Origin: an uncultured Clostridia bacterium
GTDB taxonomy: Bacteria; Bacillota; Clostridia; Oscillospirales; Ruminococcaceae
Reading direction: 5' to 3'
DNA length: 46,923 bases
Assembly: GCA_945947715.1 (NCBI GenBank)
Contig: CAMEYZ010000001.1
Coordinates: forward strand, 1-46,923
Shown: positions 12,166 through 37,202 of the stretch, in pieces
How positions within the stretch are numbered: position 1 is the first letter of the stretch
Layout of the letters: every line of letters starts with the position of its first letter
Notes under the pieces: model-generated
What the model saw: only the letters and a program-made list of their open reading frames with translations
Told to the model about the DNA's origin: nothing
Databases searched by the model: none
Translations under genes and position numbers: made by a program

Positions 12166-15100
12166 TTAAATCGAACTGCTTTCTGCGGTCAGTTCCTCTT
12201 TAGTAGTTCTCCATTGCTTTAACGCACCTTCGACAGTATCATCTTCATGCAAAGGAAATAGTAATTTACAATCAGGAGAAACTCCCTCATAGCATTCAAT
12301 GATTGTATCGATCATTTCATGCATTTGAGTAAAAGTATTGCCTTGGTAAGAATATGCGGGATATTCTAATTCTAATATACGTCCCTTGAGTAACCTTCCG
12401 TTATCTCCGCAGTATGGTTCTGCATCATGTTCAATGCAGAAATCTAAAGCACGGATAATGATTTCATGCTTCGGAAATAGATCATACGGCTTTCTTTTCA
12501 CATATTCTGACATGATCTGGGATATGTAATCCATAATAGCAATATTATACCTAATCTGTTCGTTTTCGGATAACTCATTCATCATAGATGTATATAACTC
12601 GTCGGCATCGTCATACGAGGTATAGAGCGCGTAAAGTACATGACCAAGATAGCCCTTCTTACAGCCCTTACTTATGGCAAGGTCAAAATTCAGCTTAACC
12701 AGCTTGCCTAATGGGATTGGCTGGTCGGGTATATATTTTTCTCTCAAATCTGCATGGTAAGGATATTGGCAGTTATCTCTTATTATTTTCATTGCCTGTT
12801 CAAAGTATTCTTTACCGCTCATATCACCGCCCACAATTCCCTGATAAAAATCAGTGCAGGCTTTTTTCAGCTTTTTCCCGTTTGTGCCGACAACATTATC
12901 CTTATTAAATGCAATATCATAGAAGTCGTCAAATATCTCTGCTATATGGTCATTTGCGAGCATCTGATCAAATATCATATGATTGATATGATAGTACATC
13001 TCTTTCTGATTTTCAGGAACAAAAATGAGTGCAGACAGCAGACTCTTAATCGCCGAATCGGTATCAAACATAGCATTATGATATTCAGCTTTTTTCAGAA
13101 GCATATTTACCATTAAAACCGCCTGGACAGGCTCCTTCGGCTTGATATACAGCTTTTCGTAATACTCGCTTTCAATTACTACTTCCTTATCAGCCGCTTC
13201 AAGCAGTTCAAGAGCCGTTATCTGACCAAACTCATCACATTCTGAGGCCTGCTTGAAAAGCTGACGAACCTTGTCAAATTTTTCATTGACCTGTTCATCG
13301 CTCAATTCATCATCATCTGAAAACTTGTAAAAGTATGTAAGCAATTCAGATTCTATTGTCGGATAATCAGCGCATGAGGACCACGTATCAGTTTCTTCTG
13401 TGTCATCCCAGGTGTGCCATATATTATCATCATTTTCGTTACTCATATTTTCCTCCTGCTTAGCTTCATTTTCGAATTCGCTCCAGTCAGGCCATTGGCT
13501 GTCATTATCAGTAGGTTCACTTTGCTCATTGTTCAGAGCATCATAGTCTGAAATGCCTTGTTTTTTCTTTGCTTCTTCAAAAGCTTTTTTAGTTGCTTCC
13601 AGCTCCTCTGAGCAATCCACTCCATTTTCCAGAGCAAGCTGATAGTATTTTATTGCATTTTCATGCTCATTAAGTACACTGTATATTGATGCACATAGCC
13701 TATATGCGTCCGGGAAGGAACACTCTGCTCCTTTTTTTCCATATTCCAGAGCTTCTTTTAATTTCTGAGTATCAAGCTCATTTGCACTAAATATATTGTA
13801 ACACTTTTGTGTATAGTAACAGCCAAGCAGACCGTTGTATTCTTTTTCCGGCAGCTGTCCCTTGAGCTTTTCAAGATATTTCATGCAGATATCAAGCTCA
13901 TTCATCTTAAAATGTATAATGAAAAGCAGCTTATATGCTTGTGTAGGTTCATCATTGTTTTTTATGGCCATTTCCAAGCAGCTTATTGCAGATTTATTAT
14001 CATTAAGCTTATTATGATAAATAACACCCTGCTTGTAATAGGTCATACAGCCATACTCAACAGCCTTTTTATAATTCTCAATGGCTTCTTCAAAATCACC
14101 TAAATCTGCTTTGGTGTTGCCTTCGTCAAGGTAAAGCTTACCCTTTGCAGCTTTTAGCTCACCCTGAATAGAAGCCGCTGTTGACGGATACTTGTTAATG
14201 GATTTCTTAAAAAAACTGCACGCCATATCATATTGTTCCAGCTGCATATATATTCTTGCAATAGTGATATATAGATCCTCGTCAGCCACATCTGCAACGC
14301 TCTCCAGCAGCTTAAGTGCAGCATTGTAATTATTATTCGCAATAGCTTTCATTGCCTGAGCGATGATATCTGATAGCTTTCTGTTGAATTTTATTTCTGC
14401 ATTAACAATATCAATTGAGTGTTCTTCGGGAATGAATAATTTTGCCAGATTAAGAGCAAAGCGAGCTTTTTCCATTTGGTTCAGATCAATATAGATCAGG
14501 GCACACTCTACATCTGCAAGAGCTTTTCCTTCTTTAGCTGCCTGCTGGAATAATTCAAGGGCTTTTTCTGGGTCAGTTTTTTTAACTAATAAGCCTTCAT
14601 TGTACAATAGTTCAGCATGAGCCTTCGATTCAGCTTCTCGTTTTTTATTTCTTGCTTTTTCGAGCATTTCTGAGCATTCAATATTATTTTTTTGTGCTAT
14701 TTCATAGTTTCTTACAGCATTTTCATAGTCTCCGAGGTGATAATATGCATATCCGATATTTTTATAAACGTTCTTAAAGTCCGGCTTTTTTTTCATGCTC
14801 AGCTGATAATATTTAACTGCATTGCTGTAATCCTTCAGAAAAAAATAGGCATTTCCGCAGTCGTTATACACATATTCCGGACAGCCAAGCTCAATAGACT
14901 TCAGGAACATCTCAATAGCTTTGGGATAATTCTTTTCATCATAATACTGACTTCCTTTTTCAGCATATTCCTCTGCCTTATCTTCATTTTCTTGCTGCTG
15001 AGGCTGGTATGAATAGGACGGGGTGCTTCTCGGAGAAAAATTCTTCTGAACAGGCACAGAGTTGCTTACATTATTTCGTGCCGGACCCTGAGATAATTTT

Positions 15101-15939
15101 ATCTGTGCATTTTTCAGCTCTTTCGAACAGTCTATGCCGTTTCTGCAGGCATTTGAATACCATATGACAGCATTTTTATAATCACCGGTATTATAATAAG
15201 CATCACCGATACATTCCATCATCCAGACATCGTCCGGGTCGATATCAAAGTCCTCATCTAAAAATTCTTCGTATGCATTTACAGCATTTTTATTATCGCC
15301 GATGCAGAGATAGTAAAATCCCCAAGCCTTTTTGCAGGGATAAGTATATCCGATGCCGTCAGCTTTGTCCAGATATTGCTTTGCCTTCTGGAAATTATCC
15401 TCTTCGCACTCCTGAATGGCAAGCTCACAATATGCATAGCAAAGATTATAATCCGTCTCATACTCTTCATTATATTCCTCGATATCTTCCGGCTCAGCCT
15501 CTTTCATTATGCGCTCAGATATCTCAATTGTTGTCTCATAATCGCCTTCATTGAAAGCATTTCTTGCTTCAATAGCATCGCGGCTGCTTATGCAGTGTTT
15601 GAGAAATTGCCGCATTGTATAATAATCGTCCGCCCCATCAGGATATTCCTGCACGAAAAGTAAATAATCATCCAGCGTTGCTCTGATATCGGAGCATGCC
15701 CCACATTTCACTCCGCTGGTATCCTCATTTTTCTTCATGCCGTAGCCCCGGCATACGATACCTACATCATTTCCCGATTTGATTCTGGGCTCACGTAGCT
15801 TTTCCGATATTGCTATTGCAGTATCCCGCTGTATCTTACTTTTACTCAGATAAAAATATAGTGCCATTGCCTTTTCTTTATCACCAAAAGAACTGAATCT
15901 GCCGGATTCCGCTTCGCTCAGATATCCTATTTCTCCCAT
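12166..15939 (-). CDS. Giant cytoplasmic TPR-repeat protein (1257 aa), function unknown
   Basis: Many TPR-like units (xDYxNA(V/I)xxYxxA). The motif NG(I/V)(D/E)CSxEL occurs three times. There is an acidic Trp-rich linker and a roughly 400-aa non-repeat C-terminal region. RBS GGGAGG upstream. Confidence 0.8.
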   Translation of the reverse strand: MGEIGYLSEAESGRFSSFGDKEKAMALYFYLSKSKIQRDTAIAISEKLREPRIKSGNDVGIVCRGYGMKKNEDTSGVKCGACSDIRATLDDYLLFVQEYPDGADDYYTMRQFLKHCISSRDAIEARNAFNEGDYETTIEISERIMKEAEPEDIEEYNEEYETDYNLCYAYCELAIQECEEDNFQKAKQYLDKADGIGYTYPCKKAWGFYYLCIGDNKNAVNAYEEFLDEDFDIDPDDVWMMECIGDAYYNTGDYKNAVIWYSNACRNGIDCSKELKNAQIKLSQGPARNNVSNSVPVQKNFSPRSTPSYSYQPQQQENEDKAEEYAEKGSQYYDEKNYPKAIEMFLKSIELGCPEYVYNDCGNAYFFLKDYSNAVKYYQLSMKKKPDFKNVYKNIGYAYYHLGDYENAVRNYEIAQKNNIECSEMLEKARNKKREAESKAHAELLYNEGLLVKKTDPEKALELFQQAAKEGKALADVECALIYIDLNQMEKARFALNLAKLFIPEEHSIDIVNAEIKFNRKLSDIIAQAMKAIANNNYNAALKLLESVADVADEDLYITIARIYMQLEQYDMACSFFKKSINKYPSTAASIQGELKAAKGKLYLDEGNTKADLGDFEEAIENYKKAVEYGCMTYYKQGVIYHNKLNDNKSAISCLEMAIKNNDEPTQAYKLLFIIHFKMNELDICMKYLEKLKGQLPEKEYNGLLGCYYTQKCYNIFSANELDTQKLKEALEYGKKGAECSFPDAYRLCASIYSVLNEHENAIKYYQLALENGVDCSEELEATKKAFEEAKKKQGISDYDALNNEQSEPTDNDSQWPDWSEFENEAKQEENMSNENDDNIWHTWDDTEETDTWSSCADYPTIESELLTYFYKFSDDDELSDEQVNEKFDKVRQLFKQASECDEFGQITALELLEAADKEVVIESEYYEKLYIKPKEPVQAVLMVNMLLKKAEYHNAMFDTDSAIKSLLSALIFVPENQKEMYYHINHMIFDQMLANDHIAEIFDDFYDIAFNKDNVVGTNGKKLKKACTDFYQGIVGGDMSGKEYFEQAMKIIRDNCQYPYHADLREKYIPDQPIPLGKLVKLNFDLAISKGCKKGYLGHVLYALYTSYDDADELYTSMMNELSENEQIRYNIAIMDYISQIMSEYVKRKPYDLFPKHEIIIRALDFCIEHDAEPYCGDNGRLLKGRILELEYPAYSYQGNTFTQMHEMIDTIIECYEGVSPDCKLLFPLHEDDTVEGALKQWRTTKEELTAESSSI

Positions 15940-23301: not shown

Positions 23302-23514
23302 TTATTTTTCTGCGTGAAGCCTTTCCAGCTCAGCTGAATATTCATCAAGCCTTTCCATGACGAATTTTTTGAGAATAGCAGCGGGAGTGGTGTTATGAGC
23401 GGTGCAGTATTCTTTGAATAGCTCTGCGTCCTCTCTGCGCAGGCGGCAGGTCACAGAGCGCATATTTTCCTTATCCCACTTGCGGGCATATTGCTTTTGC
23501 TTTTCGGATACCAT
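23302..23514 (-). CDS. Small (70 aa) ribbon-helix-helix-like protein
   Basis: KENMRSVTCRLRREDAELFKEYCTAHNTTPAAILKKFVMERL fits a beta-strand plus two helices, as in a CopG/Arc RHH. RBS AAGGAG 9 nt upstream. Confidence 0.55.
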   Translation of the reverse strand: MVSEKQKQYARKWDKENMRSVTCRLRREDAELFKEYCTAHNTTPAAILKKFVMERLDEYSAELERLHAEK

Positions 23515-25269: not shown

Positions 25270-25302
25270 GGGGCCTTTGAGAGATCAAAGGCTCCTTTTT
25301 TG
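25270..25302 (+). terminator. Intrinsic terminator after the AraC/GyrI gene (left boundary of the candidate operon)
   Basis: GGGGCCTTTGA-gaga-TCAAAGGCTCC followed by T6. Confidence 0.85.
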
Positions 25303-25451
25303 TTGATGATTTATGGGATAGCATAGCCTGTTGACTGTGGACATACAGTCATCAGATTTTTTTCAGATTTGAAAAAAAATCACGCGGACGGTATGGTATT
25401 ATTATTTCAGCAAAGAAATATGGCAGAGAATAATTCATGGAGGTCGGTCCG

Positions 25452-26840
25452 ATGAACAGCTATGATGAGCCCTGTAGGAGCATATTCAAGCGTTATCCCG
25501 ATTCGGTATTTTTTGACGCGGACAGTGCTGTGAGAAAGTGCATGAAGGGTATATCCGATGCTGAGCTTTCGGAATATGTGGGAAGGTTCACTTCCTATTT
25601 TGTGATACATCAAAGCGGAGTGGTTTCTCTTCTGGAAACAGTTTTTTCGTACATGACGGTCCTTCTGATGTACCGCGGAGAGGATGAGCTTATAAAAAAG
25701 CTGATGCCGTTTAACAGCGCGGAAAAATCAGCATATATGAAGCTGACTCCCTCTGATATTTCCAGGACAAATATACTTAGCATGCTTATGCTATGCTGTA
25801 TGAAAAAAACTGACGAGGTATTCTGCAAGCGGCTTATTGATATGTGGATAGGGATAGATATGATCGAAAGGGAAAAGGATGTTATCCTTGCTGATGAGGC
25901 GGAGTTTATCCTTCATCCCCTTTATCCGCTGATGCTCACCGAAAGCTTTGAGCTGGTGAGATACTACGCAGACAGATTTCAGGAGGAAAGGCGCAGGGCA
26001 GGAAAAGCGCACTTTGACAACAGATATTACCGAGGTTATGTGGAGTCTGCGATATACTACCGTCAGAAGGAGTTTCTTAGGGTCCTCTGCGACAGCGGAT
26101 ATGACCCCTCCTTCAGCGAAAACACTCTTGCATATATTCTGTCTGACAGAGCCAATGTTGAGTATATTTCCGACATCTGGGAGGTGCGTGAAATCGGGCT
26201 CTTGGAGGACGATATCACGCAGAAAGCTCCGGATAAGCATTATCTGAACATAATGAGCATTGACCGGATAAGCCTGTTGGACAATCTATGCCGAAATTAC
26301 GGTGATGCTGGCTGCAGTGAGCTGTTCAAAACGATACCGCTGATAGATTCAGTTTACGAAAGAGACCTTGCGGCTGTTATTGATAAGCTTTCCGGTAATT
26401 ACGGACTTATTTCCGACAAGGAAAACGCCGAAAAAACAGAAAGGGCTTTCAATAAATACAGCACTGAAAATATCACTATTGTTATTCAGAACGGAAGAAA
26501 TATCCTGCGATTTGAAAAATATCTTAAGGATAAGAGCATTACCTACGATTTCAGCGATGACACTGAGCTCAGATGCATCACTTCTCCTTTCGTCAGAAAT
26601 GAGCCGATTGGAAGGCTGGTAAGATTCTTTTCAAAGGGGCAGTTCATCTTCAATACAGAAAAGCTGTCCCTGTTTACCGCCGAGCTGCTGTTGAGAAATA
26701 GTGCCGCTCTGACGAAGGCTCTTGTCATGAAGGGTGCTTTTTCTGAAAAAAACATCGGAGATGCTATAGACTTTGCCGTTGAAAACAAGCTGTACAACAG
26801 CCTTGATCAGATAAATAAATTCTATTTTCAGGAGGATTAG
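25452..26840 (+). CDS. Hypothetical alpha-helical repeat protein P1 (462 aa; possibly divergent ankyrin-like repeats)
   Basis: GGAGG lies 8 nt upstream of ATG 25452; the 25437 ATG sits inside that RBS. I see no catalytic motif. Segments such as AIYYRQKEFLRVLCDSGYDP and ALVMKGAFSEKNIGDAIDFAVENKLYNSL resemble the ANK pattern. Confidence 0.7.
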   Translation: MNSYDEPCRSIFKRYPDSVFFDADSAVRKCMKGISDAELSEYVGRFTSYFVIHQSGVVSLLETVFSYMTVLLMYRGEDELIKKLMPFNSAEKSAYMKLTPSDISRTNILSMLMLCCMKKTDEVFCKRLIDMWIGIDMIEREKDVILADEAEFILHPLYPLMLTESFELVRYYADRFQEERRRAGKAHFDNRYYRGYVESAIYYRQKEFLRVLCDSGYDPSFSENTLAYILSDRANVEYISDIWEVREIGLLEDDITQKAPDKHYLNIMSIDRISLLDNLCRNYGDAGCSELFKTIPLIDSVYERDLAAVIDKLSGNYGLISDKENAEKTERAFNKYSTENITIVIQNGRNILRFEKYLKDKSITYDFSDDTELRCITSPFVRNEPIGRLVRFFSKGQFIFNTEKLSLFTAELLLRNSAALTKALVMKGAFSEKNIGDAIDFAVENKLYNSLDQINKFYFQED

Positions 26841-26843
26841 ACC

Positions 26844-28514
26844 ATGAGTATTCCTATGATACACAAGCACAGCTTCGGAGATAAAAAATATCTTCAGCCC
26901 GCTGATATTTCGGACGAGCAGATACGCAAAGCAGTTTATTCCCGCAGCAGATTCAGCATGACCGTCGAGCTTATGCGCAGACTTGACAGGATAGACGCGG
27001 AGGATTTTTCTGAAAATACAAATAAGTATTTTATCTCGGCAGAACATATCAACGACGCATATATCGCTGTTATGGCAATATACGGCTGCATAGCCGATAA
27101 AATGGAGGAGCTTGGCAGCGTTATCCTTCTTGATGAGAGGGACGGCAAAAATACCGAAAGCAACGTTGCGGCAGCTATCAAGATTTCTGCGGAGATGAAT
27201 GACCCAAGTACCGCTGAGATGCTCTCCTGCGAGAACAATCCTGTTATACATAACCTTCCCTCTCTTTCAGAGGGGAATATCGGAAGGGATATCCTCCTTG
27301 ATGACAGGATAGAGTTTTTCATATGCTGTCCGCCTGCCGACCGCTCTGACCCTGTGATGAAGCAGGTGGAGGGCTGCTGCAGATGCGTGTTCATTGAATC
27401 GGACAGCTCCGAGGACCCAAGAAGTATCCTGACCGATTATTTCTGGGAAAGGGACTATGATCCCGAAAATGTGGAAAAGGAGATAAGCTCTCTTGTGCGC
27501 AGTATTCATACCCGCGATGAATATGTTATCGCTTCGGCGGCCCGTCAGGTCATCAGCAATCATCTGTACAATTCGCCCGACGACCGCGAGCTCACACGCA
27601 GCGATTTCAAGGGTGTGGCTGAGCTGTTTTCAGCGTCCTCTGCAAAGGTCTCTGTCAAGGGCGCCTCACTTGTGGGGCTTGAAAAGGAAACGGAAAAGAT
27701 AAACGGCATAATCAACTCGGTAGGTATTGACAAGCTCAGATTCGACAAGGGCATCTCAAGGAGCTTCAGCGGCTGCAGTATGGTCTTCGCAGGACCTCCG
27801 GGCACCGCTAAGACTACCCTTGCAAGACTTTTCGCCGAAAAGCTGGCAGAGCTCCACATCATCAAAAGCGGTTCCTGCTTCAAGGAATGTACCAAATCCG
27901 ATTATGTGGGTCAGTATGTGGGACATACTGCTGCAAAGGTGGATTCCCTCTTTTCTGAAATGTCCAAAAACGGCGGCGGAGTTATCTTCTTTGATGAGAT
28001 ATATACCCTTGCAGAGGATAACGCTACTGCCTTCGATAAGGAGGCTGTGACCTGCATCACCCAGAATATGGAGAATTACAGAGGAAACGTGTTCTGTATC
28101 TTTGCAGGCTATGAGGACAAAATGGACAGCTTTCTGTCCTCCAATCCCGGACTCAGGTCGCGTATGAGCTTTATCGTGAGATTTTCAGGCTATTCAGACG
28201 AAACACTGGTCAGCATTTTCAGGAGCATGGCGGCTGCGGATAATTACAAGCTTCCTGACAGCTGCGAGGATATCCTCTGTGACTTTTTCAGCCGCCTGAG
28301 AAGCTCGCGGGGGGAAAAGTTCGGAAACGGCAGAGAAGCCCGCAATCTGCTGGTGAACGCAAAGCAGAAGCATGCTCAGAGGATAAGCGGATTTAAGAAA
28401 AAAACTGCAAAAATGCTCACGGTTCTGGAAATAGAGGATATCTCGTCGGCTGCTGAGGATATGCTGTCCTCCGAGCTTTCAGACGGCTTCGTTCACAGGA
28501 CCATTGGTTTCTGA
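26844..28514 (+). CDS. AAA+ ATPase, CbbX/SpoVK-type C-terminal module with an uncharacterised ~300-aa N-terminal region
   Basis: Walker A GPPGTAKT (27792-27815), Walker B VIFFDEIY, GLRSRM, sensor-2 GNGREARNL. RBS AGGAGG. Starts 3 nt after the P1 stop. Confidence 0.85.
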   Translation: MSIPMIHKHSFGDKKYLQPADISDEQIRKAVYSRSRFSMTVELMRRLDRIDAEDFSENTNKYFISAEHINDAYIAVMAIYGCIADKMEELGSVILLDERDGKNTESNVAAAIKISAEMNDPSTAEMLSCENNPVIHNLPSLSEGNIGRDILLDDRIEFFICCPPADRSDPVMKQVEGCCRCVFIESDSSEDPRSILTDYFWERDYDPENVEKEISSLVRSIHTRDEYVIASAARQVISNHLYNSPDDRELTRSDFKGVAELFSASSAKVSVKGASLVGLEKETEKINGIINSVGIDKLRFDKGISRSFSGCSMVFAGPPGTAKTTLARLFAEKLAELHIIKSGSCFKECTKSDYVGQYVGHTAAKVDSLFSEMSKNGGGVIFFDEIYTLAEDNATAFDKEAVTCITQNMENYRGNVFCIFAGYEDKMDSFLSSNPGLRSRMSFIVRFSGYSDETLVSIFRSMAAADNYKLPDSCEDILCDFFSRLRSSRGEKFGNGREARNLLVNAKQKHAQRISGFKKKTAKMLTVLEIEDISSAAEDMLSSELSDGFVHRTIGF

Positions 28515-28534
28515 ATACACGGGGAGGGATAAAT

Positions 28535-29599
28535 GTGGATAATATCAGTCAGTTTGAATTTCTGACAAAAATAGAACACTGTGTCAATGATAATGGCTCT
28601 GCCGATGATTTTGCTGAGCTTGAAGGTGAGATGTTTTCGAAAAACTCCGTTTTGATCGAGAATCCGTTTATTACTGACGAGTATGATGAACTCGTGCTCA
28701 GCAGCACTTATAATTTTCTGTCCGTATTTGCCGAACGTTTCCCCGAAAGATTTCTCATACAGGATAATGCTAACATTTCGGACTCAGGTCCATTCATCTA
28801 CAAGGCAATGCTGCGTGATATTTTTGCGGGCAGAAGGTCGGCTGAAACGCTGGCTGAAATTGTATTTGCGCCGTTTTTCCCTGATAGCTATTTTAATGAA
28901 GCTCTGACTGCAGCGGTATTAAGCGGGAACGACAGCTTTTTTGAATATTTTATTCAGAAGGTTGAAAATCCGGTGCGTTACGTAAGCAAATCAATATACA
29001 TGTATTTCACGGATCACGGCATGTATGACCATATCGAAAGAATATTCAGAGGAGCTTCCCGGGAGGAAATATTAGCTGTCTGCCGCAATTCGATAGGACA
29101 GCTGCTGCGACAGGTAGATATTAAGTGCAAAAAAATGCCGGTAGAGTATCTGTACGAGCTTACCGGATATCTTCCGGGAAATGTCAGCGCAGAAGAACGT
29201 TCCAGGATTGTGATCGGTATCATGGAGGAGGTTAATGATTGGGAAGCATCTATATTTTCGGATAGGAGGAATATGCTTGTACGGACAAACAAAACAGAAA
29301 AACACTGGGGTGTGGACACATGGAAATATATGAATGAACATGGAATAAAAATCCGTTCGCTGGATTTTCTTTTTGGCAATAAGCTCAGATTCAATATATC
29401 CGATGAGAAAATCCTCTCGATACTTAGTCTTATCCAGGAATACATTGTTCCTATTCTTGAGGACAAGCTCATTATTACCGAAAAATTCTATGCTTTTCTG
29501 AGCAAAAGCCAGCAGGAGTTAGTGATTCGGTTTGTTGAGCTTATAGGAGCAGACAGAGTTTACATGGATTGCACCGATAAAAACTGCAGCTTTTTTTGA
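28535..29599 (+). CDS. Hypothetical helical protein P3 (354 aa), N-terminal part of a P1 paralogue
   Basis: GTG start with GGGGAGGG 6 nt upstream. Ends AGC TTT TTT TGA inside a T7 run. The +1 frame continues open into the next ORF. Confidence 0.7.
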   Translation: MDNISQFEFLTKIEHCVNDNGSADDFAELEGEMFSKNSVLIENPFITDEYDELVLSSTYNFLSVFAERFPERFLIQDNANISDSGPFIYKAMLRDIFAGRRSAETLAEIVFAPFFPDSYFNEALTAAVLSGNDSFFEYFIQKVENPVRYVSKSIYMYFTDHGMYDHIERIFRGASREEILAVCRNSIGQLLRQVDIKCKKMPVEYLYELTGYLPGNVSAEERSRIVIGIMEEVNDWEASIFSDRRNMLVRTNKTEKHWGVDTWKYMNEHGIKIRSLDFLFGNKLRFNISDEKILSILSLIQEYIVPILEDKLIITEKFYAFLSKSQQELVIRFVELIGADRVYMDCTDKNCSFF

Positions 29600-29633
29600 C
29601 GATGAATTTTTTAACGAAAATACTGACGGTGAT

Positions 29634-29882
29634 ATGAAGGCACGTTCACTGGCAAAAACAGGTGTTCATGTGATATTAGACGATGACATACGCAACAGCT
29701 ATTATGTCTCCAAGCTTCTGTTAGATGTCCAATGTCTGGGATATATGCTGGACGGAGCTGCTCTGACAGATGAACAGATAGATACGCTTATTGATATATG
29801 CGTCGAGAAAAAACTGTTTGACGCCATGAATGCTGTCAGAAAATATGTTGACAGGAAGATTTCTTCAAAATTGAAAAAATAA
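29634..29882 (+). CDS. Small ORF P4 (82 aa), probably the C-terminal part of P3 reached by a +1 shift
   Basis: Its frame is open upstream back through 29598. There is no convincing RBS of its own. LLLDVQCLGYMLDGAALTDEQIDTLIDICVEKKLFDAMNAVRKY aligns with the P1 C-terminus. Confidence 0.6.
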   Translation: MKARSLAKTGVHVILDDDIRNSYYVSKLLLDVQCLGYMLDGAALTDEQIDTLIDICVEKKLFDAMNAVRKYVDRKISSKLKK

Positions 29883-29948
29883 CCGCAGAAACATCTTGTA
29901 TAATATGATCATAGGATAAAAAACATCAAAAAACAGGAGGAATTTATT

Positions 29949-31184
29949 ATGACAAATTCAATTACCGCTTCCGGAGGAAGACACAGCGTTACTATCGCAC
30001 AGGCAAAGGAGCAGCTTAAGATGATCTGCCGCACCTATCTTGAAAAGGATAGCTCGGGTCAGCCTATTATCCCCGTGAACAGACAGCGTCCCATTATGCT
30101 TATGGGTCCTGCGGGCATTGGAAAGACTGATATCCCCAGGCAGGCAGCTAAGGATATGGGTCTGGGCTATGTTTCCTACTCAATCACTCACCACACCAGA
30201 CAGAGCGCCCTCGGACTTCCCAAGATCGTTTCCAGAAGCTACAACGGAGAGAATATCTCCACCACAGAATATACCGCCAGCGAGATAGTTACCTCGGTAA
30301 GAGACGAGATCGAACGCACGGGCAATCCTGAAGGGATTCTCTTCATCGACGAGGTGAACTGTGCTTCTGAAACACTGGCTGCTCCCATGCTGCAGCTTTT
30401 CCAGAACAAGACCCTCGGACAGAGCAGAATACCTGACGGCTGGATACTGGTCATGGCGGGAAATCCTCCCGAGTATAACAAGAGCGTCAAGGAATTTGAC
30501 GCGGTTACAAGAGACCGTCTCAGAGTTATCAACATAGTGCCCGACAGCGAGGCATGGCTCAGATATGCGTCAGAAAATAAGCTGCACCCCATAATCACAG
30601 CATACATAACCTCTGACAGCAGCAAGATATACTCCTTTGACGAAAATGATAACAGCATCGTTACTCCCAGAGGCTGGGAGGAGCTGTCCATAACTCTTAC
30701 AGCCTTTGAAAGAAACAGCTTCCCTGTGACTATCGACCTTATCGAGCAGTATCTCGCCGTTCCTACGGTGGCAGCCGAATTTTTCGACTATTACCGCCTT
30801 GTCAAGGAAACCATATCCGAAGAGGAAATAGATCTTATCGTCAGCGGAAAGGCCTCCGCGGATATGATATCCCGGCTTAAGGGCTGCAACGTGGGGATAC
30901 GCTTTATGCTTATTGAGTGTATGAAGAGAAGGCTTCATATGGCAGCAGTTTCTGGTGATCTTCGACTGGCTTCGGAGATGATGGATAATATATCCGATTT
31001 TGTGGAAAAGGTCTACGGAAAGAACGGCGAAATAGAGATATTTATGAGCGGTATCCTTGTGGACGGCGATATTGTCAAGGCTGCGATAGCCTCTCGCAAT
31101 CAGCGCTTTGGCGTTTATCTGGACAACGTTACCACCGCGGAGACTAATATCAAGAAAAAGCTTAAAAAGACTGCAAAGCAGTAA
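29949..31184 (+). CDS. MoxR-like AAA+ ATPase (AAA_5 type), cassette 2
   Basis: Walker A GPAGIGKT (30105-30128), Walker B ILFIDEVNCA, MAGNPPEYN, Arg-rich TRDRLRV. RBS AGGAGG. Confidence 0.85.
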   Translation: MTNSITASGGRHSVTIAQAKEQLKMICRTYLEKDSSGQPIIPVNRQRPIMLMGPAGIGKTDIPRQAAKDMGLGYVSYSITHHTRQSALGLPKIVSRSYNGENISTTEYTASEIVTSVRDEIERTGNPEGILFIDEVNCASETLAAPMLQLFQNKTLGQSRIPDGWILVMAGNPPEYNKSVKEFDAVTRDRLRVINIVPDSEAWLRYASENKLHPIITAYITSDSSKIYSFDENDNSIVTPRGWEELSITLTAFERNSFPVTIDLIEQYLAVPTVAAEFFDYYRLVKETISEEEIDLIVSGKASADMISRLKGCNVGIRFMLIECMKRRLHMAAVSGDLRLASEMMDNISDFVEKVYGKNGEIEIFMSGILVDGDIVKAAIASRNQRFGVYLDNVTTAETNIKKKLKKTAKQ

Positions 31185-31196
31185 GGAGCTGATAAT

Positions 31197-32576
31197 ATGC
31201 GCGATAAAAATTCCTTTACACCCGATGAGCTTGAGCTGGCAGCGGAGATAATCAGCCACACGATCCGCAGGACCACAATGGAGCTCTCCTTTCTACAGCG
31301 GGCCGTTTACTCGCTTAAAACGGAGCCTGCGGACGAGGTGGAGACCATATGCTCGGATTATGAATATCTCTATTATAATCCCAAGTGGGTCATCAGTATG
31401 TACACCAAAAATAAGGACAAGCTGATAAATGCCATAATCCATACTGTGCTGCACAGTCTGTACCTTCACCCGTCAATGACGTCGGAAAAGGATGATGTTT
31501 TTGATACGGCAGCTGACTTTTCCGTGTTCTGCATGATGAAGTCTGCTGATCTGCTCAGTGGCATGTCTTCGGTGGAGAGTGACATAGATAAGTTCATCGA
31601 CAAGTATAAAGTAAGCTCCACAGCCGAGCTGTACGAGCTTGCAGAATCAGATGTCAAGGCGTTTGGCAAGATGTTCTCCATAGTGTCAAAGCTTAAGTCT
31701 GACGATCATCAGATGTGGTACACCAGACGGGAAAAAAATCAGCAGAATAGGCTGGACGCTCCTGAGATCAGCGGAGATGCTGCCCCTTTGGAAGAAGCTC
31801 CTGAGCAGAAGGGCAGCGACATCTCAGCTGCGGCAGCGATCTCTGAGGCGGAACAGAGCTGGTCATCACTGCTGTCCCATGCGAAGGTGAGCGCTCGCAG
31901 CGAGTGCTTCGGCAGCAAACACGGAAATATGTTCATGGAAATAAAAAAGCCTGACCGGTTCAGCAGGTTTTCTTATCTGGAGTATATCCGCCGGTTTGCA
32001 ATACAGGAGGTCATGTCTGAGGACCCTGATACCTTCGACCTTATGATGTACACCTGGGGCATGGATAATCTGGGGGACACTCCGATAATTGAATTCAGCG
32101 AGACCCGTGAGCAGTGCAGTGCTACGGATATAATCATCGCCATAGATATGTCGGGCTCCTGCGGCGGAGATATCGCAGTCAATTTTCTGCGGCAGATATA
32201 CTCCCTTTTCGAGCAGATGAACATTCGCAGCTCAGTTAATATCCACGTGGTGACCTTTGATACCTGTATCATCAGCAAAAAGGTGATACGTTCCCGCAAA
32301 GACGCATACGAGCTTATTAAAAACTATAGGGGGAGTGGCTGGGGAGGCACCGATTTTACCTGTGTATTTAATTATGCGGATAGCTTTTCTAAGGAAAATC
32401 ACGGAAAAAGACTTAAAGGACTGTTTTTCTTCTCGGACGCAATGGGCATGTTCCCCGGCACAAAGCCCAGCTACAGAACGACGTTCTTCATTCCCGAGAA
32501 CAGCAGCTTTGGCGCAGGTACATTCTGGGAGCCAGATGTTCCTGACTGGGTAGAGATGGTCCATTACAAGGACTGA
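31197..32576 (+). CDS. VWA-domain protein with DUF2201-type pseudo-metallopeptidase N-domain (MoxR partner, cassette 2)
   Basis: HTVLH occupies the HExxH position (31440-31454). MIDAS IAIDMSGSC (32145-32159). C-terminal GGTDF. 12 nt after the MoxR stop, with RBS AAGGAG. Confidence 0.8.
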   Translation: MRDKNSFTPDELELAAEIISHTIRRTTMELSFLQRAVYSLKTEPADEVETICSDYEYLYYNPKWVISMYTKNKDKLINAIIHTVLHSLYLHPSMTSEKDDVFDTAADFSVFCMMKSADLLSGMSSVESDIDKFIDKYKVSSTAELYELAESDVKAFGKMFSIVSKLKSDDHQMWYTRREKNQQNRLDAPEISGDAAPLEEAPEQKGSDISAAAAISEAEQSWSSLLSHAKVSARSECFGSKHGNMFMEIKKPDRFSRFSYLEYIRRFAIQEVMSEDPDTFDLMMYTWGMDNLGDTPIIEFSETREQCSATDIIIAIDMSGSCGGDIAVNFLRQIYSLFEQMNIRSSVNIHVVTFDTCIISKKVIRSRKDAYELIKNYRGSGWGGTDFTCVFNYADSFSKENHGKRLKGLFFFSDAMGMFPGTKPSYRTTFFIPENSSFGAGTFWEPDVPDWVEMVHYKD

Positions 32577-32587
32577 GGAGGACAAAT

Positions 32588-32728
32588 GTGACAGAGCTTC
32601 AGGAAATGATGCTATGCTATATCCCGTCGGAGACTACAGAGATAGACGTAATTTCAAGAGAACATGAGCACATGGGCGTACTTTGCGCCGAATTATGGAA
32701 GGAGAATAAATATGTGCAGAGAAATTAA
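32588..32728 (+). CDS. Candidate 46-aa micro-ORF between the VWA and RNA-ligase genes
   Basis: GTG lies 6 nt after a perfect AGGAGG that overlaps the VWA stop. 46 sense codons. Its TAA overlaps the ligase start by 17 nt. No homology can be judged. Confidence 0.3.
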   Translation: MTELQEMMLCYIPSETTEIDVISREHEHMGVLCAELWKENKYVQRN

Positions 32729-33638
32729 GCATAAGAAGTATCTTGACATCGAAAGATTTACCGATAAGCTTGCTTTCGGTTTCAGCGCGGGAGACGATAT
32801 CCTCATCGAGGAAAAGATCGACGGTTCAAATGCAAGCTTTCTCTATGATGAGGAGTCTGACAGCATCATCGCTTTTTCAAGAAATTATCAGTTAGACGAG
32901 GAAAATGATCTTCGGGGCTTCTGGGGCTGGACTCAGAGCCTTGACAAGGAGCTTGTCAAAAAGGTCATTGGCACGTCAAAGAAGGTTTTCGGAGAATGGC
33001 TGGTCCCTCATACGGTGAAATATCCTGAGGAATGTTATCAGAAGTTCTACTGCTTCGACGTGTGGGATATCGAAAATAACAAGTATCTCACTCAGAACGA
33101 GGCAATGGAGATAGCCGAAGCGCTGGGACTTACCTTCGTACCTGTTTTCTATTCCGGAAAATTCACGAGCTGGAACGATATCAAGGGATATGTGGGAAGG
33201 ACCGCTCTCGGCGGAGAAGAGGGCGAGGGTATCGTAGTCAAGAACATGTCCTCCCTGAATAACGATGAGATACGTTGCGTGTTTTACACGAAGCTTGTCA
33301 GTGATAAGTTCCTTGAGGTACACGACGTCAAGAAGTTCAAACAGAAAAAGGAAAAGGATCCTGATATGTATAAGCTGTCCCCGGATATGGAGATAGCAGC
33401 TATGGTAGTGACCAGAGCTCGTGTGGAGAAGATACTCAATAAAATGGTGGACGACGGCATTATCCCCGAAAACTGGGGCAGGAACGACGTGGGCACCATT
33501 ATGAAGAATGCGGGCAGGCTCGTATATGAGGATTGCGTGAAGGAGGAGCCCGAGATCGTAGCAAAGGCGGAGGATTTCGGAAAGGCATGCAGTGCCACCA
33601 TCGTCAGAGTGCTTAAGAAGATCGTGCTGGACAGATAA
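32712..33638 (+). CDS. ATP-dependent RNA-ligase-fold nucleotidyltransferase (RNA_ligase/Rnl2-like family)
   Basis: Motif I EEKIDGSN (Lys codon 32814-32816), motif III VFGEW, IIIa FYCFDVW, IV EGIVVKN, V YTKLVSDKF. GGAAGGAG lies 7 nt upstream of ATG 32712, which I prefer over 32664. Confidence 0.8.
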   Translation: MCREIKHKKYLDIERFTDKLAFGFSAGDDILIEEKIDGSNASFLYDEESDSIIAFSRNYQLDEENDLRGFWGWTQSLDKELVKKVIGTSKKVFGEWLVPHTVKYPEECYQKFYCFDVWDIENNKYLTQNEAMEIAEALGLTFVPVFYSGKFTSWNDIKGYVGRTALGGEEGEGIVVKNMSSLNNDEIRCVFYTKLVSDKFLEVHDVKKFKQKKEKDPDMYKLSPDMEIAAMVVTRARVEKILNKMVDDGIIPENWGRNDVGTIMKNAGRLVYEDCVKEEPEIVAKAEDFGKACSATIVRVLKKIVLDR

Positions 33639-33651
33639 GCTCGTCTGAATG

Positions 33652-33690
33652 AAAAATCGCTGTCGCGGATAGCTGCGGCAGCGATTTTTG
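33652..33690. terminator. Bidirectional intrinsic terminator between the convergent RNA-ligase and WYL genes
   Basis: AAATCGCTGTCGC-loop-GCGGCAGCGATTT followed by T5 and preceded by A5. Confidence 0.85.
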
Positions 33691-33699
33691 TTGAGTATA

Positions 33700-34890
33700 T
33701 CAAAGCTGTGTAGGCTCCCTGTCATAGGTCTGCAGAAGCTTTTCGGCAGCCTCCTTCATCTCCTGGCGCAATGACGGCGGAGAGAGTATCTCACAGCCCC
33801 AGCCGTATTCCAGTGCCCACATCTTCACCCCTGACAGCGAGGTGTTCATAATATCCACCTGCACATGAGAGGCGTCTATATCATTGATGAGCACGTCAAA
33901 GCCGAAGGTGTCTATGACGTTATTTATCAGGCTTCTGTCGCATATCATTGAGACTGAGTGCTTGGACAGGTCGCTATACATCACAGGATTTTTATTCTTA
34001 TAGGTTATCTCGTTGAATTTTTCTTCGGGCAGCTGTGCCTTATGCTCGGTACATTTTACCTCTATCATGCGGTCAACGCGGTAATTGATATAAACGGGAC
34101 CTTTTTTCGGATTAAAGGAATAGGTCACAAGATAGTAATATCCATTGGTCCACATGAGCTTTACCGGATTGACCTCTCTCACATCAGGGTCGTTCTTATC
34201 GCAGGAAAACTTCGGGTGCTTGACCACCAGCTCCTTTTTGGAGTTGTATTCGCAGTATTTGAATCTTACTGTATTTATGGGCTTTTCATAGGAGCGGTCG
34301 TTATCCTCGCGTATTGCTTCCTTATCGGATTCGGTCAGCTCACGTATGTATTTTGTAGTTGAAAGAGCCTTGCTTATCTCCTCGATATTTTCGTAATAGG
34401 TGCCATTATATTTTATGGCAGACACCTTGCGGGGATCGTAAAGCTCCTGATTATATTCCGGGGTGAGCTGGTTGAGACCGTAGATGATATCCTTTGTGAC
34501 CTTCGGGTCAGCGAAGGAATATACTGCGATAGCGTCTCGGAGTATCTTTATCTGTGTCTCGGACAGCGGGCCCTCAACATAATATCTTCTTATATCTCTT
34601 TCCTTGCTCTTGGGAACATTCGGACAAGGTTCCGCATACAGCTTGAGCCCGTAATAAAATATGCTGTTTTCGCTTTTTTCGGCTTTTTCCACCAGCTTAT
34701 CAAGGGTGCGATACACGTTATACACCGTGCTGTCAGAAAGATCGCTTACCATATCCGTGTCATATTTTAGCTTGTACATAGCCGCATAGATCTCTCTTCC
34801 CGAAACCTTATGCCCCTCCGAGGAATTATCAATAAGAAATTGAATGATATCCTTTTCGGAAATAGATTTATCTTTATTAGAATCAGACAT
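33700..34890 (-). CDS. WYL-domain transcriptional regulator (wHTH - WYL - WCX architecture)
   Basis: N-terminal wHTH-like IIQFLIDNSSEGHKVSGREIYAAM. WYL core VNPVKLMWTNGYYYLVTY...INYRVDRMIEV (~34060-34165). C-terminal WCX-like MWALEYGWGCEILSPPSLRQEM. Confidence 0.85.
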   Translation of the reverse strand: MSDSNKDKSISEKDIIQFLIDNSSEGHKVSGREIYAAMYKLKYDTDMVSDLSDSTVYNVYRTLDKLVEKAEKSENSIFYYGLKLYAEPCPNVPKSKERDIRRYYVEGPLSETQIKILRDAIAVYSFADPKVTKDIIYGLNQLTPEYNQELYDPRKVSAIKYNGTYYENIEEISKALSTTKYIRELTESDKEAIREDNDRSYEKPINTVRFKYCEYNSKKELVVKHPKFSCDKNDPDVREVNPVKLMWTNGYYYLVTYSFNPKKGPVYINYRVDRMIEVKCTEHKAQLPEEKFNEITYKNKNPVMYSDLSKHSVSMICDRSLINNVIDTFGFDVLINDIDASHVQVDIMNTSLSGVKMWALEYGWGCEILSPPSLRQEMKEAAEKLLQTYDREPTQL

Positions 34891-34923: not shown

Positions 34924-34952
34924 ATTATATCATGGTAGATGCTGATTGTCAA
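34924..34952 (-). promoter_or_regulatory. Perfect sigma-A promoter dedicated to the WYL gene
   Basis: Minus strand TTGACA - 17 nt - TATAAT with TGATATAAT. Followed by the direct repeat GTGATAAAGTGAT and RBS GGAGG. Confidence 0.7.
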
Positions 34953-35894: not shown

Positions 35895-36980
35895 TTACAG
35901 CAGCCACAGCAGATAGCTTATTCCAAATGCCACAGCGCCAATCAGAGCGGTCAGTCCGATAAGCCATTTCCAGTATGCTGATTTATCAACGGGAAGATCT
36001 CCCACGAGCTTTCCTGTCTGTCCATTCATTGCAAAGGTATATTTCTGATCGTTCCATGTGGTGTTGAGTATCCACACAGGATAGAGCGCATATTTTGCCT
36101 TACCGTTGTTCAGTTGAATGGCTGTGGATTCGGGTATGCAGGTATCATATCCGATAACAGTGGAGGCAAAGGCCTGCTCGGTGCTTTTTTTGATTCGTTC
36201 GTTAGCGCGGTCGATGCTGTGTTCAGCGTCCACGTCGTACTTATCCGCCATATAGCCTGCCAGATAGGCGGTCTTGAAATCCACTGCCTCAGAGAAATCG
36301 AAGGGCTCGATAGATTCCATGAGCTCAGCCTCCATTTTTGTGGATCCGTCCACAGGAACATGCTCAAAGGCCAGGGCGCCCTCACGCATCACCAGAAAAT
36401 AGCTTGTTTCCGTATAGTTGTAGCGACTGTCGCTCCAGAAGCGAGTCTTAGTGGCCTTGTAGCGTATCTCAGCGTCAGCATCAGCGTCAAACAGCCAGAA
36501 GGGAACATATACACCCTTGATCTCGTCGATATGATTCTGATCCTTGAATATCTTCGGCAGCAGTCTTTTTCCCTTGTAATGCTCGTTCAGAGCCTTCTTT
36601 GCGGCTTCCTTATCCAGCTTGAAGGGGATAACGTAATCGGGCTTTAGTGCACCGGAGAACTGTCCTGTCATAACCACAGGACTGCCGCAGTAGGGGCAGG
36701 CTGTGGCAGCAGTATTTTCATCGCCCACGATCTCGCCGCCGCATGATTTACATACATATGCCTTCAGGCCGTCAGCCTCACCATTGTCCCACTGTGAGCC
36801 TGGGGAGGTCTCCCACTGCATATCGTCCTCCTGCATATTGTTCAGCGCTTCATCATAGGAAGCAAGAGCTTCCGCTTCAAATTCGGTGCCACAGTAGGGA
36901 CACTGAAGCTTCTGCGAGTTGGGGTCAAAAGCAATTTCTCCGCCGCAGCACGGACATTTGTACTCCATTAATTCGGACAT
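35895..36980 (-). CDS. Double zinc-ribbon protein with C-terminal membrane anchor
   Basis: CPCCGG...CPYCG and CKSCGG...CPYCG ribbons, a roughly 230-aa globular region, and C-terminal TM WLIGLTALIGAVAFGISYLLWLL. AAGGAG lies 8 nt upstream of ATG 36980. Confidence 0.7.
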   Translation of the reverse strand: MSELMEYKCPCCGGEIAFDPNSQKLQCPYCGTEFEAEALASYDEALNNMQEDDMQWETSPGSQWDNGEADGLKAYVCKSCGGEIVGDENTAATACPYCGSPVVMTGQFSGALKPDYVIPFKLDKEAAKKALNEHYKGKRLLPKIFKDQNHIDEIKGVYVPFWLFDADADAEIRYKATKTRFWSDSRYNYTETSYFLVMREGALAFEHVPVDGSTKMEAELMESIEPFDFSEAVDFKTAYLAGYMADKYDVDAEHSIDRANERIKKSTEQAFASTVIGYDTCIPESTAIQLNNGKAKYALYPVWILNTTWNDQKYTFAMNGQTGKLVGDLPVDKSAYWKWLIGLTALIGAVAFGISYLLWLL

Positions 36981-37202
36981 AACCTTCACTCCTTACATTT
37001 TATCATTTTGAATTTATCGTAAAAAAATATCTGTTAATTATATTGTACCATATCTGTCAAGTACCGGGGAAAAAACATGAAAAGATATATTTTTTGTGAA
37101 ACAATTCGTTTTTTGTAGTGACATTTCTGATATTTTCGTTTATGTTTATAATGTATTCATGGCAGGTCTATAGGAAAAATGGTCTTGAAAGGATTATAGC
37201 GT

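Follow-up and report, generated by a model that had tools for sequence, protein, structure and literature searches.

The 46,923 nucleotide (nt) stretch of DNA analysed here (the window) is contig CAMEYZ010000001.1 of an uncultured Clostridia bacterium of the family Ruminococcaceae. It carries on its + strand an operon (positions 25437-33638) that is followed by a convergent gene for a WYL-domain regulator. Sequence comparison with about 13 related loci identifies a conserved core of five protein families in this gene cluster: the WYL regulator, a CbbX/SpoVK-type AAA+ protein (P2), a MoxR-class AAA+ ATPase, a vWA protein, and at least one (one to five) ankyrin-like protein of the P1/P3 type. 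We favour the view, and give it about an even chance of being correct, that the cluster encodes one accessory, WYL-regulated multi-chaperone system, most likely involved in conflict or defence, which would be a Clostridial analogue of the predicted MoxR-vWA 'ternary' systems. The features of the window locus are as follows.

25270-25302, + strand: intrinsic terminator of an AraC-family gene, forming the left edge of the operon (11 bp stem with 6 GC pairs and a T-run; terminator scan).
25369-25397, + strand: weak promoter-like site 5' of P1 (TTGAAA-17-TATGGT; 9/12 matches).
25437-26840, + strand: P1, an ankyrin-like helical-repeat protein with a central α/β region and a C-terminal module common to P3.
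26844-28514, + strand: P2, a 556 aa AAA+ protein with a family-specific N-terminal half (residues 1-275) and an active-looking AAA+ C-terminal half (Pfam AAA, AAA_lid_6).
28535-29882, + strand: P3+P4, a single 448 aa P3-family gene split by a frameshift into open reading frames (ORFs) 28535-29599 and 29634-29882.
29949-31184, + strand: P5, the MoxR-class AAA+ ATPase, 411 aa (Pfam AAA_5 score 38.4 bits; cut-off 22).
31197-32576, + strand: vWA protein, 459 aa, with an N-terminal DUF2201_N metallopeptidase-like domain (Pfam).
32588-32728, + strand: micro-ORF, remnant of a 283 aa gene (comparison with L007:7029-7880).
32664-33638, + strand: ATP-dependent RNA ligase, with an Rnl2/Rnl5-like nucleotidyltransferase (NTase) domain and a C-terminal domain (Pfam RNA_ligase, PF09414, 99.1 bits against 27).
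33652-33690, both strands: terminator hairpin in the gap between the ligase gene and the convergent WYL gene (folding).
33700-34890, - strand: WYL + WCX transcription regulator of BrxR/CapW-like architecture (Pfam, PADLOC).
34924-34952, - strand: sigma-70 promoter of the WYL gene (TTGACA-17-TATAAT, extended TG; 12/12 consensus matches).

An ORF scan of the window found the seven + strand ORFs given in a preliminary description of this DNA, with the same spacers (in order 3, 20, 34, 66, 12 and 11 nt) and every motif quoted there. The two strong intrinsic terminators that it placed at the operon ends also fold strongly. The left hairpin (25270-25295, followed by the T-run) has a ΔG of -19.6 kcal/mol (z -4.85), and the right hairpin (33652-33690) has a ΔG of -29.1 kcal/mol (z -5.98) on the + strand and -18.5 kcal/mol (z -5.39) on the - strand. 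Since the right hairpin folds on the minus strand too, it is a likely bidirectional terminator common to the ligase and WYL genes. Between the left terminator and the P1 promoter-like site lies a perfect palindrome, ACTGT-N6-ACAGT (25334-25349), which is present as a single copy in the window against a chance expectation of 0 and could be an operator. No operator obviously common to this region and L010, the one other locus inspected, was apparent.

Genes for P1-like, P2, P3-like, MoxR, vWA and WYL proteins recur together in eight independent lineages, in several gene orders and with P2 identity down to 43-46%, which bears out the proposal that they form an undescribed, conserved gene set. Conservation of the gene order in another genome, on which the preliminary description had made that proposal depend, is seen in L004/L010 (P1-P2-P3-MoxR-vWA). 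The neighbourhood comparison it had suggested places P1-family genes with those for CbbX-like, MoxR and vWA proteins, and with RNA ligase genes only occasionally. P2 is present in seven of the eight lineages that carry MoxR-vWA, within ~8 kb of the pair despite inversions and insertions, and in five lineages a P1/P3 gene is its immediate neighbour, across a spacer of 3-40 nt. The arrangements in the related loci are:

L004/L010: WYL (divergent) / P1-P2-P3-MoxR-vWA.
L002 and L007 (one metagenome-assembled genome): P1-P2-P3 and P3'-MoxR-vWA-283 aa gene-ligase.
L003/L009 (Huintestinicola): P3-P3-MoxR-vWA-113 aa ORF, then WYL, then P1; no P2 within 27 kb.
L008/L011/L012: P2 (L011 and L012), then metallophosphoesterase-AddA-AddB on the opposite strand, then MoxR-vWA.
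L011/L012: three or four P1/P3 paralogues beyond MoxR-vWA; WYL in L011.
L016 (P2 46% identical): vWA-MoxR-WYL / P1-P2-P3 / McrB-McrC.
L017: vWA-MoxR-WYL / ClpP-P2-P3.
L020: serine recombinase / vWA-MoxR / P2 and four tandem P1-like genes / WYL / P1-like.
L082, L083 and L090: WYL-P2 with a double-zinc-ribbon (DZR) protein and/or McrBC.

The protein families of the cluster are very rare and were seen in gut Clostridia only; a genome scan with very specific patterns recovered 6 loci among 185,579 species genomes.

The WYL regulator, which had been described as lying next door to the operon, is by sequence comparison a conserved member of the gene set and not a chance neighbour: orthologues (39-84% identity) stand beside the cluster in L003/L009, L004/L010, L011, L016, L017, L020, L082, L083 and L090. 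The protein matches Pfam WYL (23.6 bits; cut-off 21.8) and WCX (33.4 bits; cut-off 23.9) and the generic WYL model of PADLOC (E = 2.9e-21); its N-terminal helix-turn-helix (HTH) is missed by Pfam and is assumed, and a sequence search of the PDB gave no match. The -35 region of its promoter, GATTGTCAAG, is also found upstream of the WYL gene in L010. WYL-WCX regulators such as BrxR and CapW co-localise with defence systems (PMC9122601). The window protein resembles these in its WYL and WCX domains, in being encoded divergently from or convergently with the cluster it would regulate and in the consensus promoter upstream, but the genes beside it belong to no known system, BREX and CBASS included.

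Zinc-ribbon proteins were seen close to the regulator in several loci. DZR proteins of 592-657 aa accompany WYL-P2 at L082:5001-6779 and L083:2281-4254, and in the window a 364 aa zinc-ribbon/DZR-like protein (35895-36989) is encoded, with a TPM-domain protein, just beyond the WYL gene.

The same set of loci bears on a different reading, which we regard as unlikely, in which two separate modules are co-located: WYL-P2, an unfoldase under regulation whose other companions are McrBC, a DZR protein, ClpP or an RNA ligase, and MoxR-vWA with P1/P3 proteins as its dedicated clients or adaptors. The window would then represent fused neighbours. P2-WYL and MoxR-vWA-P3 are each seen apart, which suggests that the set may indeed be two modules. 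No MoxR-vWA is in view beside WYL-P2-DZR in L082 or beside McrBC, WYL and P2 in L090, although these contigs, at 6.9-7.8 kb, are too short to prove its absence; L083 (WYL, McrBC, P2) has ~10 kb of flank on each side of P2-WYL without MoxR-vWA. Conversely, the P3-P3-MoxR-vWA, WYL and P1 genes of L003/L009 have no P2 within 27 kb, and P1/P3 proteins are found only alongside MoxR-vWA. AddAB separates P2 from MoxR-vWA in L011/L012, and stand-alone MoxR-vWA pairs of the same clade occur among housekeeping genes. Against a division into two modules stand the close linkage of P2 to MoxR-vWA in seven of eight lineages and the P1/P3 genes that directly flank P2 in five of them; moreover, WYL accompanies both halves.

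The assignment of the C-terminal half of P2 to the CbbX/SpoVK type of AAA+ proteins was upheld. Besides the Pfam AAA and AAA_lid_6 (46.7 bits) domains, this half matches CbbX/SpoVK/EccA models with E values of 1e-47 to 1e-56, and the best match in a PDB search was CbbX (E = 4e-38, 33% identity). The scores against NCBIfam models TIGR02880, TIGR02881 and TIGR03922 are 173, 189 and 160.3 bits, with cut-offs of 459.25, 422.95 and 466.65, respectively; by sequence, P2 belongs to the CbbX/SpoVK/EccA clade but is an orthologue of none of these three. The translation contains GPPGTAKT, VIFFDEIY and GNGREARNL, and the key residues are K323 and T324 (Walker A), D384 and E385 (Walker B) and R440 (Arg finger). 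A pore loop of the CbbX type, VGQYVGHTA, is kept across the P2 family alignment, and AAA_lid_6 and the pore-loop context VGQY[IV]GHTA are common to P2, CbbX, SpoVK and EccA. P2 differs from these proteins in its Walker A motif and in an IGF-like tail. Its 275 aa N-terminal half is unique when set against EccA, which has TPR repeats, and CbbX, which has none. No Rubisco, sporulation or type VII secretion genes were found in the window or in the related loci.

A full HMMER pass with the N-terminal half (residues 1-275) recovered 19 clusters among 1.84 billion representatives, 16 of them 546-605 aa long and of the same architecture and three shorter (224-304 aa); a profile search in a word-indexed database returned one protein and was uninformative. 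In the compared related loci P2 is 546-586 aa long. When the P2 model was submitted to Foldseek, CbbX was the first match (276 columns), and the full-length protein aligned to the double-ring AAA+ ATPases Rix7, p97/Cdc48 and Drg1 over 550-600 columns (TM 0.42-0.44). Because the whole protein aligns in this manner, the model suggests that the N-terminal half of P2 is a degenerate AAA-like domain. The extreme C-terminus of P2 is also conserved (SSEL, 7-10 residues, [IVLM]-G-[FI]), and this IGF-like tail, invariant in the family, is of low confidence and flexible in the AlphaFold2 (AF2) model.

ClpX docks on ClpP through IGF loops, and P2 is like ClpXP in two respects: its pore loop is of the threading type, and the [IVLM]-G-[FI] motif at its end is similar to the docking loop. 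In L017, moreover, a clpP gene lies 18 nt upstream of P2, in the slot of P1, and its product has an intact Ser-His-Asp triad and is active-looking. The likeness is partial, since the P2 motif is C-terminal whereas that of ClpX is an internal loop, and the ClpP linkage was seen once.

A metagenome scan with the P2 alignment returned mostly a further AAA+ gene, from a common human-gut species. Human-gut contigs L023-L071 encode a distinct SpoVK-like AAA+ protein, 44% identical to P2 over residues 184-514, which is very common in human-gut assemblies. Its layout is always [443 aa][365 aa][AAA], without MoxR, vWA or WYL, and these loci were for that reason excluded as members of the system; they look like a separate, uncharacterised three-gene unit.

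The protein described as a MoxR/AAA_5 ATPase is confirmed as such by its Pfam AAA_5 score, and its translation contains GPAGIGKT and ILFIDEVN. It is 61-84% identical across the related loci, has midasin as its only PDB match (E = 2e-4), does not match Pfam bpMoxR, and matches phrog_1297 in PHROGs (E = 7.8e-44). The vWA gene begins 12 nt 3' of the MoxR gene. Its product matches DUF2201_N at 41 bits (cut-off 23.2), falls just below the cut-off for DUF2201 (25.6 against 26.4 bits), matches phrog_1314 (E = 2e-29) and has no match in the PDB by sequence. The reported motifs are both present: the sequence HTVLHSLYLH is without the catalytic Glu, and the MIDAS (DMSGS...T...D) is intact. The change is not, however, a local decay. 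H-x-[VIL]-[LM]-H, in place of HExxH, is found together with a MIDAS in 11 of 11 aligned relatives, including the stand-alone pairs, and the loss of the Glu is thus ancestral to the clade. The protein lacks the HExxH signature of an active zinc metallopeptidase, while a second vWA protein encoded in the window (7856-9700) keeps it as HEYLH.

With CbbQ-CbbO, NorQ-NorD, RavA-ViaA and CoxD-CoxE, the pair shares two features: the AAA_5 ATPase and vWA genes are adjacent, and the MIDAS is intact. By analogy with these characterised pairs, ATP-driven remodelling of a vWA-held client would be expected here too. By sequence, the cluster pair falls outside the CbbQO, NorQD, RavA-ViaA and CoxDE subfamilies, and its vWA protein carries the DUF2201_N peptidase-like domain.

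The P1 ORF probably starts at 25452, to judge from a GGAGG sequence 7 nt upstream and a 98% identical homologue (P0001) of 462 aa, which would give P1 the same length, 462 aa. P1, P3 and P4 gave zero matches in Pfam, NCBIfam and PADLOC, and P1 gave one marginal match in PHROGs (E = 0.009). A profile search placed 10 proteins in the P1 family among 5.8 billion. Ank_2 was the top sub-threshold Pfam family for P1/P3 (3/11 members, best E = 0.025), and the conserved stretches PLYxLMIT and ASAAY..EFL..LFD.GY resemble degenerate ankyrin repeats. No invariant residues of catalytic type stand out in the P1/P3 alignment, in agreement with the earlier remark that P1 has no catalytic motif.

The AF2 model of P1 (pLDDT 78, pTM 0.75) comprises a helical N-terminal part, an α/β region (residues 248-404) and a helical C-terminal module. 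Foldseek, which the preliminary description had proposed for both proteins, gave the CbbX and loose double-ring AAA+ alignments described above for P2 and no significant match in either the PDB or BFVD for P1. The PDB list for P1 consisted of generic TPR, ARM and PPR repeats, none significant, and the weak BFVD list was mostly of giant-virus ankyrin proteins, all with E > 0.02 and TM ~0.2. On this model, the fold of P1 is assignable no further than 'helical repeats plus an α/β insert'.

Frame analysis of the P3 and P4 ORFs centred on a run of seven T residues at 29590-29596: the P3 frame stops just after it and the P4 frame is open across it. Removal of one T from the run gives a 448 aa ORF, and strain L005 (98.97% DNA identity over 5.1 kb) has six T residues at the same site and an intact 448 aa gene. 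Orthologues of P3 are 430-475 aa long. P3 and P4 are, by this comparison, one gene with a +1 frameshift in the T run, which could be a sequencing or assembly error, a recent mutation or a phase switch.

P3+P4 had been called a paralogue of P1, and this holds for part of the protein. BLASTP detected no similarity between P1 and P3/P4, and hhalign aligned the C-terminal ~100 aa alone (E = 4e-4, probability 33%). A jackhmmer search from P1 reached the window P3P4 protein at E = 1e-5, with divergent paralogues of related loci as bridges. When the last 110 residues of P1 or P3 were used as the seed, all P1/P3 members were united, with E = 9e-17 for P3P4 and E = 5e-17 for the 82 aa P4 ORF; the E values of the jackhmmer and C-terminal-module searches are relative to a small local database. 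Profile methods thus demonstrate homology between P1 and P3 for the C-terminal module (~100 aa) only. As the sole part common to all P1/P3 paralogues, this module is a natural candidate for a surface that docks on the conserved machinery.

The P1/P3 proteins diverge two to three times faster than the enzymes of the cluster. Between the window and L010, identities are 34% for P1 and 27% for P3, against 64% for P2, 73% for MoxR, 63% for vWA and 65% for WYL. The corresponding values for L016 are 24% and 20%, against 46%, 67%, 47% and 39%, and the pattern is repeated in L002/L007. The copy number also varies, from one to five P1/P3 genes per locus, and L020 combines three recent tandem P1-like duplicates (68-71% identity) with two old copies (25-28%). 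The layout had been taken to suggest two pairs of an adaptor and an ATPase. This does not fit the variable number of P1/P3 copies, the presence of ClpP where P1 would stand in L017, or the tendency of P1/P3 genes to track MoxR-vWA and not P2.

Among predicted systems, the closest parallel discussed here is with the 'FtsH ternary' MoxR-vWA conflict systems, which section 21 of Kaur, Burroughs, Iyer and Aravind (2020, eLife; PMC7159879) presents as a computational prediction only. Across the MoxR-vWA ternary systems, the pair is joined by a conserved third component (VMAP, iSTAND, a two-domain FtsH-type AAA+ protein or a β-propeller) and by effectors. In the FtsH type, the third component combines an inactive N-terminal AAA+ domain with an active AAA+ domain of the classical clade, and extra α-helical proteins are present. 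In the terms of that section, the ternary systems and the cluster have in common a MoxR-vWA pair with a third AAA+ component, private α-helical proteins, a vWA protein with an N-terminal non-vWA domain, and an inferred logic of chaperone-gated assembly. Several differences separate the two. The ATPase of P2 is of the CbbX/SpoVK/EccA type (E = 1e-56 to 1e-47) and its match to FtsH is much weaker (E = 3e-8), and an inactive AAA domain in the N-terminal half of P2 is a suggestion only. The cluster has a WYL regulator, arrays of ankyrin-like paralogues and a dead-peptidase vWA protein. No NEFF1, radical-SAM, Ubl-conjugation or caspase components were found by Pfam or PADLOC in the proteins scanned. 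The hosts of the cluster are gut Clostridia, whereas that section places the ternary systems in delta-proteobacteria, actinobacteria and planctomycetes.

If the cluster does encode a single multi-chaperone system, the variable ankyrin-like parts of P1/P3 would recognise a target, which might be a protein of an invader or a client within the cell, and the common C-terminal module would dock on the conserved machinery, through the vWA MIDAS or P2. MoxR-vWA would load or restructure the complex, and P2 would thread or unfold the bound polypeptide. The ClpP gene that stands in for P1 in L017 encodes an intact triad, and this, together with the IGF-like tail of P2, suggests delivery to ClpP; more speculatively, P2 might hand its substrate over through the tail, in the way that the IGF loops serve ClpX. 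Until a signal arrives in the form of a nucleic acid or a nucleotide, the operon would be kept silent by the WYL protein. A more specific form of this scheme, which is possible and which we put forward tentatively, is an undescribed anti-phage or anti-mobile-element immunity. Hypervariable ankyrin-like sensors, in one to five copies, would take hold of invader proteins and be armed by MoxR-vWA. P2, as a WYL-gated tandem-AAA unfoldase, would dock on ClpP by its IGF-like tail, and the captured protein would be destroyed or an effector released; the defence would work through targeted proteolysis, with optional add-ons such as the RNA ligase.

Together with the loci in which its two halves are seen apart, a number of observations weigh against the single-system reading. 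No obvious toxic or nuclease effector is conserved in the core. ClpP is adjacent to P2 in one locus only (L017), and we know of no precedent for an IGF tail among the partners of ClpP, whose docking loops are internal. P2 is assumed to be active as an ATPase, and its Walker A motif, GPPGTAKT (residues 317-324), is unusual: Ala replaces the second Gly of GxxxxGK[ST] and is invariant in the family. The reading of the N-terminal half as a degenerate AAA domain comes from a monomer model (pTM 0.48) and loose alignments (rmsd ~11 Å), and hhalign found no significant similarity between the two halves of P2 (probability 1.7%), so that no internal duplication was confirmed. The flanks of the operon in the window consist of carbohydrate-use and regulatory genes, with no defence genes, integrase, tRNA or deviation in GC content. 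Finally, the window copy carries two lesions, the P3 frameshift and a deletion in the 283 aa gene described below, which suggest relaxed selection; with these lesions, the system may be impaired in this strain.

A scan of the operon with PADLOC-DB v2, a check that had been called for, detected no known or candidate defence system: P1, P3, P4, MoxR and vWA gave zero matches, and P2 gave weak generic AAA matches only (IetA, E = 1e-9; TRIP13). P2 is unlike the ATPase of IetAS, scoring 23 against 510 bits for IetA/IteA, and no IetS protease is present. Defence genes adjoin the cluster in relatives, and none lie in the flanks of the window operon. McrBC adjoins the cluster in three independent loci (L016, L083 and L090), in L010 it has AbiEi (E = 9e-64) and a type II methyltransferase on its downstream side, and ZacB (E = 1e-28) and a serine recombinase flank it in L020. 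L083, the one IMG/VR contig with P2, carries McrBC, NADAR and amidase genes, and none of the 10 proteins scanned from it is a recognisable virion component. In the window, the surroundings had been described as decayed and accessory-like. The flanking genes are in fact ordinary and intact, comprising AraC regulators, GH16, DUF6290 and a hydrolase upstream and TPM, zinc-ribbon, DegV and hybrid histidine kinases downstream; the GC content of the operon is indistinct from its surroundings, and scans for island markers gave zero matches to tRNA genes and Rfam elements in the window. The decay sits within the operon, not in its flanks.

These neighbours also bear on the possibility, in our judgement an unlikely one, that the cluster is a proteostasis or assembly system without a role in defence, in which, during a stress response such as that to DNA damage, the two chaperones would act on the ankyrin-like proteins or on a complex that these scaffold, by folding, assembly or degradation. 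The WYL regulators PafBC and DriD sense DNA damage, and in L008, L011 and L012 the cluster encloses genes for AddAB and a metallophosphoesterase; the window locus, for its part, is set among ordinary metabolic genes, and no toxic effector is conserved. So rare and extremely patchy a distribution would be surprising for a housekeeping role, as would putative clients that diverge fast and vary in copy number, a close strain pair that differs by an inactivating frameshift, and the repeated presence of McrBC, AbiEi, methyltransferase, ZacB and recombinase genes nearby. In favour of such a role, all characterised MoxR-vWA pairs (CbbQO, NorQD, RavA-ViaA and CoxDE), as well as CbbX, are client-specific maturation or activation chaperones (PMC9976466, PMC4660213).

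Whether or not the multi-chaperone system is defensive, three of its families have essentially no relatives: P1/P3, the N-terminal domain of P2 and the 283 aa ligase partner. MoxR-vWA multi-ATPase systems are among the largest predicted classes of prokaryotic conflict systems without an experimental member, and the cluster represents a compact form of them, with five families and, in the window, six or seven genes; it is clonable and derives from culturable-type gut Firmicute lineages. If the link between the IGF-like tail and ClpP is genuine, it would be a new coupling of a CbbX-type AAA+ protein to a protease, and if the immunity scheme is correct, defence would operate by protein recognition through fast-evolving ankyrin-like sensors, in parallel to eukaryotic repeat-protein immunity. 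The window and L005 provide a natural strain pair that differs by the homopolymer frameshift.

The last gene of the operon was correctly recognised as encoding an RNA-ligase-fold enzyme with all NTase motifs. Motifs I (KIDGSN), III (FGEWLVPH), IIIa (KFYCFDV), IV (EGEGIVVKN) and V (K..V..K) are conserved, and the true start is probably at 32712, as indicated by the sequence GGAAGGAG upstream. The protein matches phrog_548 (E = 8.7e-54). The RNA ligases that large Bacillus phages encode are ~40% identical to it, others from Staphylococcus and Listeria phages also match, and every identity is under 60%; its profile matches NgrRnl (E = 1e-6) and T4 Rnl2 (E = 3e-5). It resembles T4 Rnl2 and NgrRnl (Rnl5) in possessing all the NTase motifs, with the NTase domain preceding the C-terminal domain as in Rnl2. 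It differs in being distant from both, in being coupled to the 283 aa gene and not to a kinase-phosphatase, and in occurring in a minority of clusters.

The micro-ORF upstream of the ligase gene exists, as reported, but it is a remnant of the 283 aa gene and not an independent gene. In its 46 codons, codons 1-16 of the 283 aa gene are fused in frame to the last ~30 codons, ~239 codons having been deleted. The gene is intact in L007:7029-7880 and is present as a truncated, 113 aa version in Huintestinicola (L009:11375-11716). Its product had no match in Pfam or PHROG, and an IMG/VR scan found no phage relative. The stop of the micro-ORF/283 aa gene overlaps the probable ligase start by 17 nt, an overlap indicating that the 283 aa gene and the ligase form a translationally coupled pair, which is broken in the window. 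The ligase had been suggested to be an output of the system. Within the clusters it was found only in two close lineages, the window clade and L007, and since it is absent from most loci and coupled to the 283 aa gene where present, the ligase and the 283 aa gene are a lineage-specific accessory add-on and not the core output. L022:6-3148 shows P2 and an RNA ligase linked independently and in another order: the gene for a P2-family member with a terminal LGF comes first, that for a phrog_548-type RNA ligase (291 aa) stands directly after it, and an unknown protein of 328 aa is encoded next.

The PHROGs matches of the ligase (phrog_548), MoxR (phrog_1297) and vWA (phrog_1314), together with the ~40% identity of the ligase to those of large Firmicute phages, could be explained by a phage-derived cassette, in which MoxR and the metallopeptidase-vWA protein would be virion-assembly chaperones and the ligase a counter-defence RNA repair enzyme. 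Section 17 of Iyer et al. (2021; PMC7824862) proposes that in group 2.2 jumbo phages a MoxR and metallopeptidase-vWA pair takes part in virion assembly. That pair has the same two-gene DUF2201_N + vWA architecture, and tblastn detected it in PA5oct-like phages at 24% identity. We consider a phage cassette extremely improbable. The Clostridial clade has lost the catalytic Glu, is chromosomal, has P2, P1/P3 and WYL added and has no virion genes nearby; no structural, packaging, integrase or lysis genes were found in the window or in any related locus, and the GC content is not distinct. A phage origin was rejected: nothing was found in IMG/VR when the vWA clade, the P1 family or the 283 aa protein served as the query. 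The GenBank matches labelled 'Bacteriophage sp.' proved to be fragments of bacterial chromosome (aminopeptidase, DegV, Mur ligase, sortase) and not phage.

Two further features of the window lie upstream of the operon. A 70 aa DUF6290 protein is encoded at 23302-23514 (- strand), upstream of the AraC gene, and is followed on the same strand by a 202 aa α/β-hydrolase-like ORF, with no recognisable toxin there. Some 15 kb upstream of the operon is a second MoxR gene (9703-10767, - strand, AAA_5), whose product is 26% identical to the operon MoxR (E = 1e-24). The second vWA/DUF2201_N protein (7856-9700, - strand, 614 aa) has, besides the intact HEYLH, a DTSGS motif and an extra, degenerate N-terminal copy, HCMLH. 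Adjoining this pair are an HTH + APH-type kinase gene (11008-11985, - strand) and a gene for a 1257 aa TPR/Sel1 repeat protein (12166-15939, - strand), and both sit in the sole clearly low-GC stretch of the window (0.375-0.39, compared with ~0.45-0.49 elsewhere). The genes around the second MoxR-vWA pair could be another MoxR-vWA-centred accessory system.

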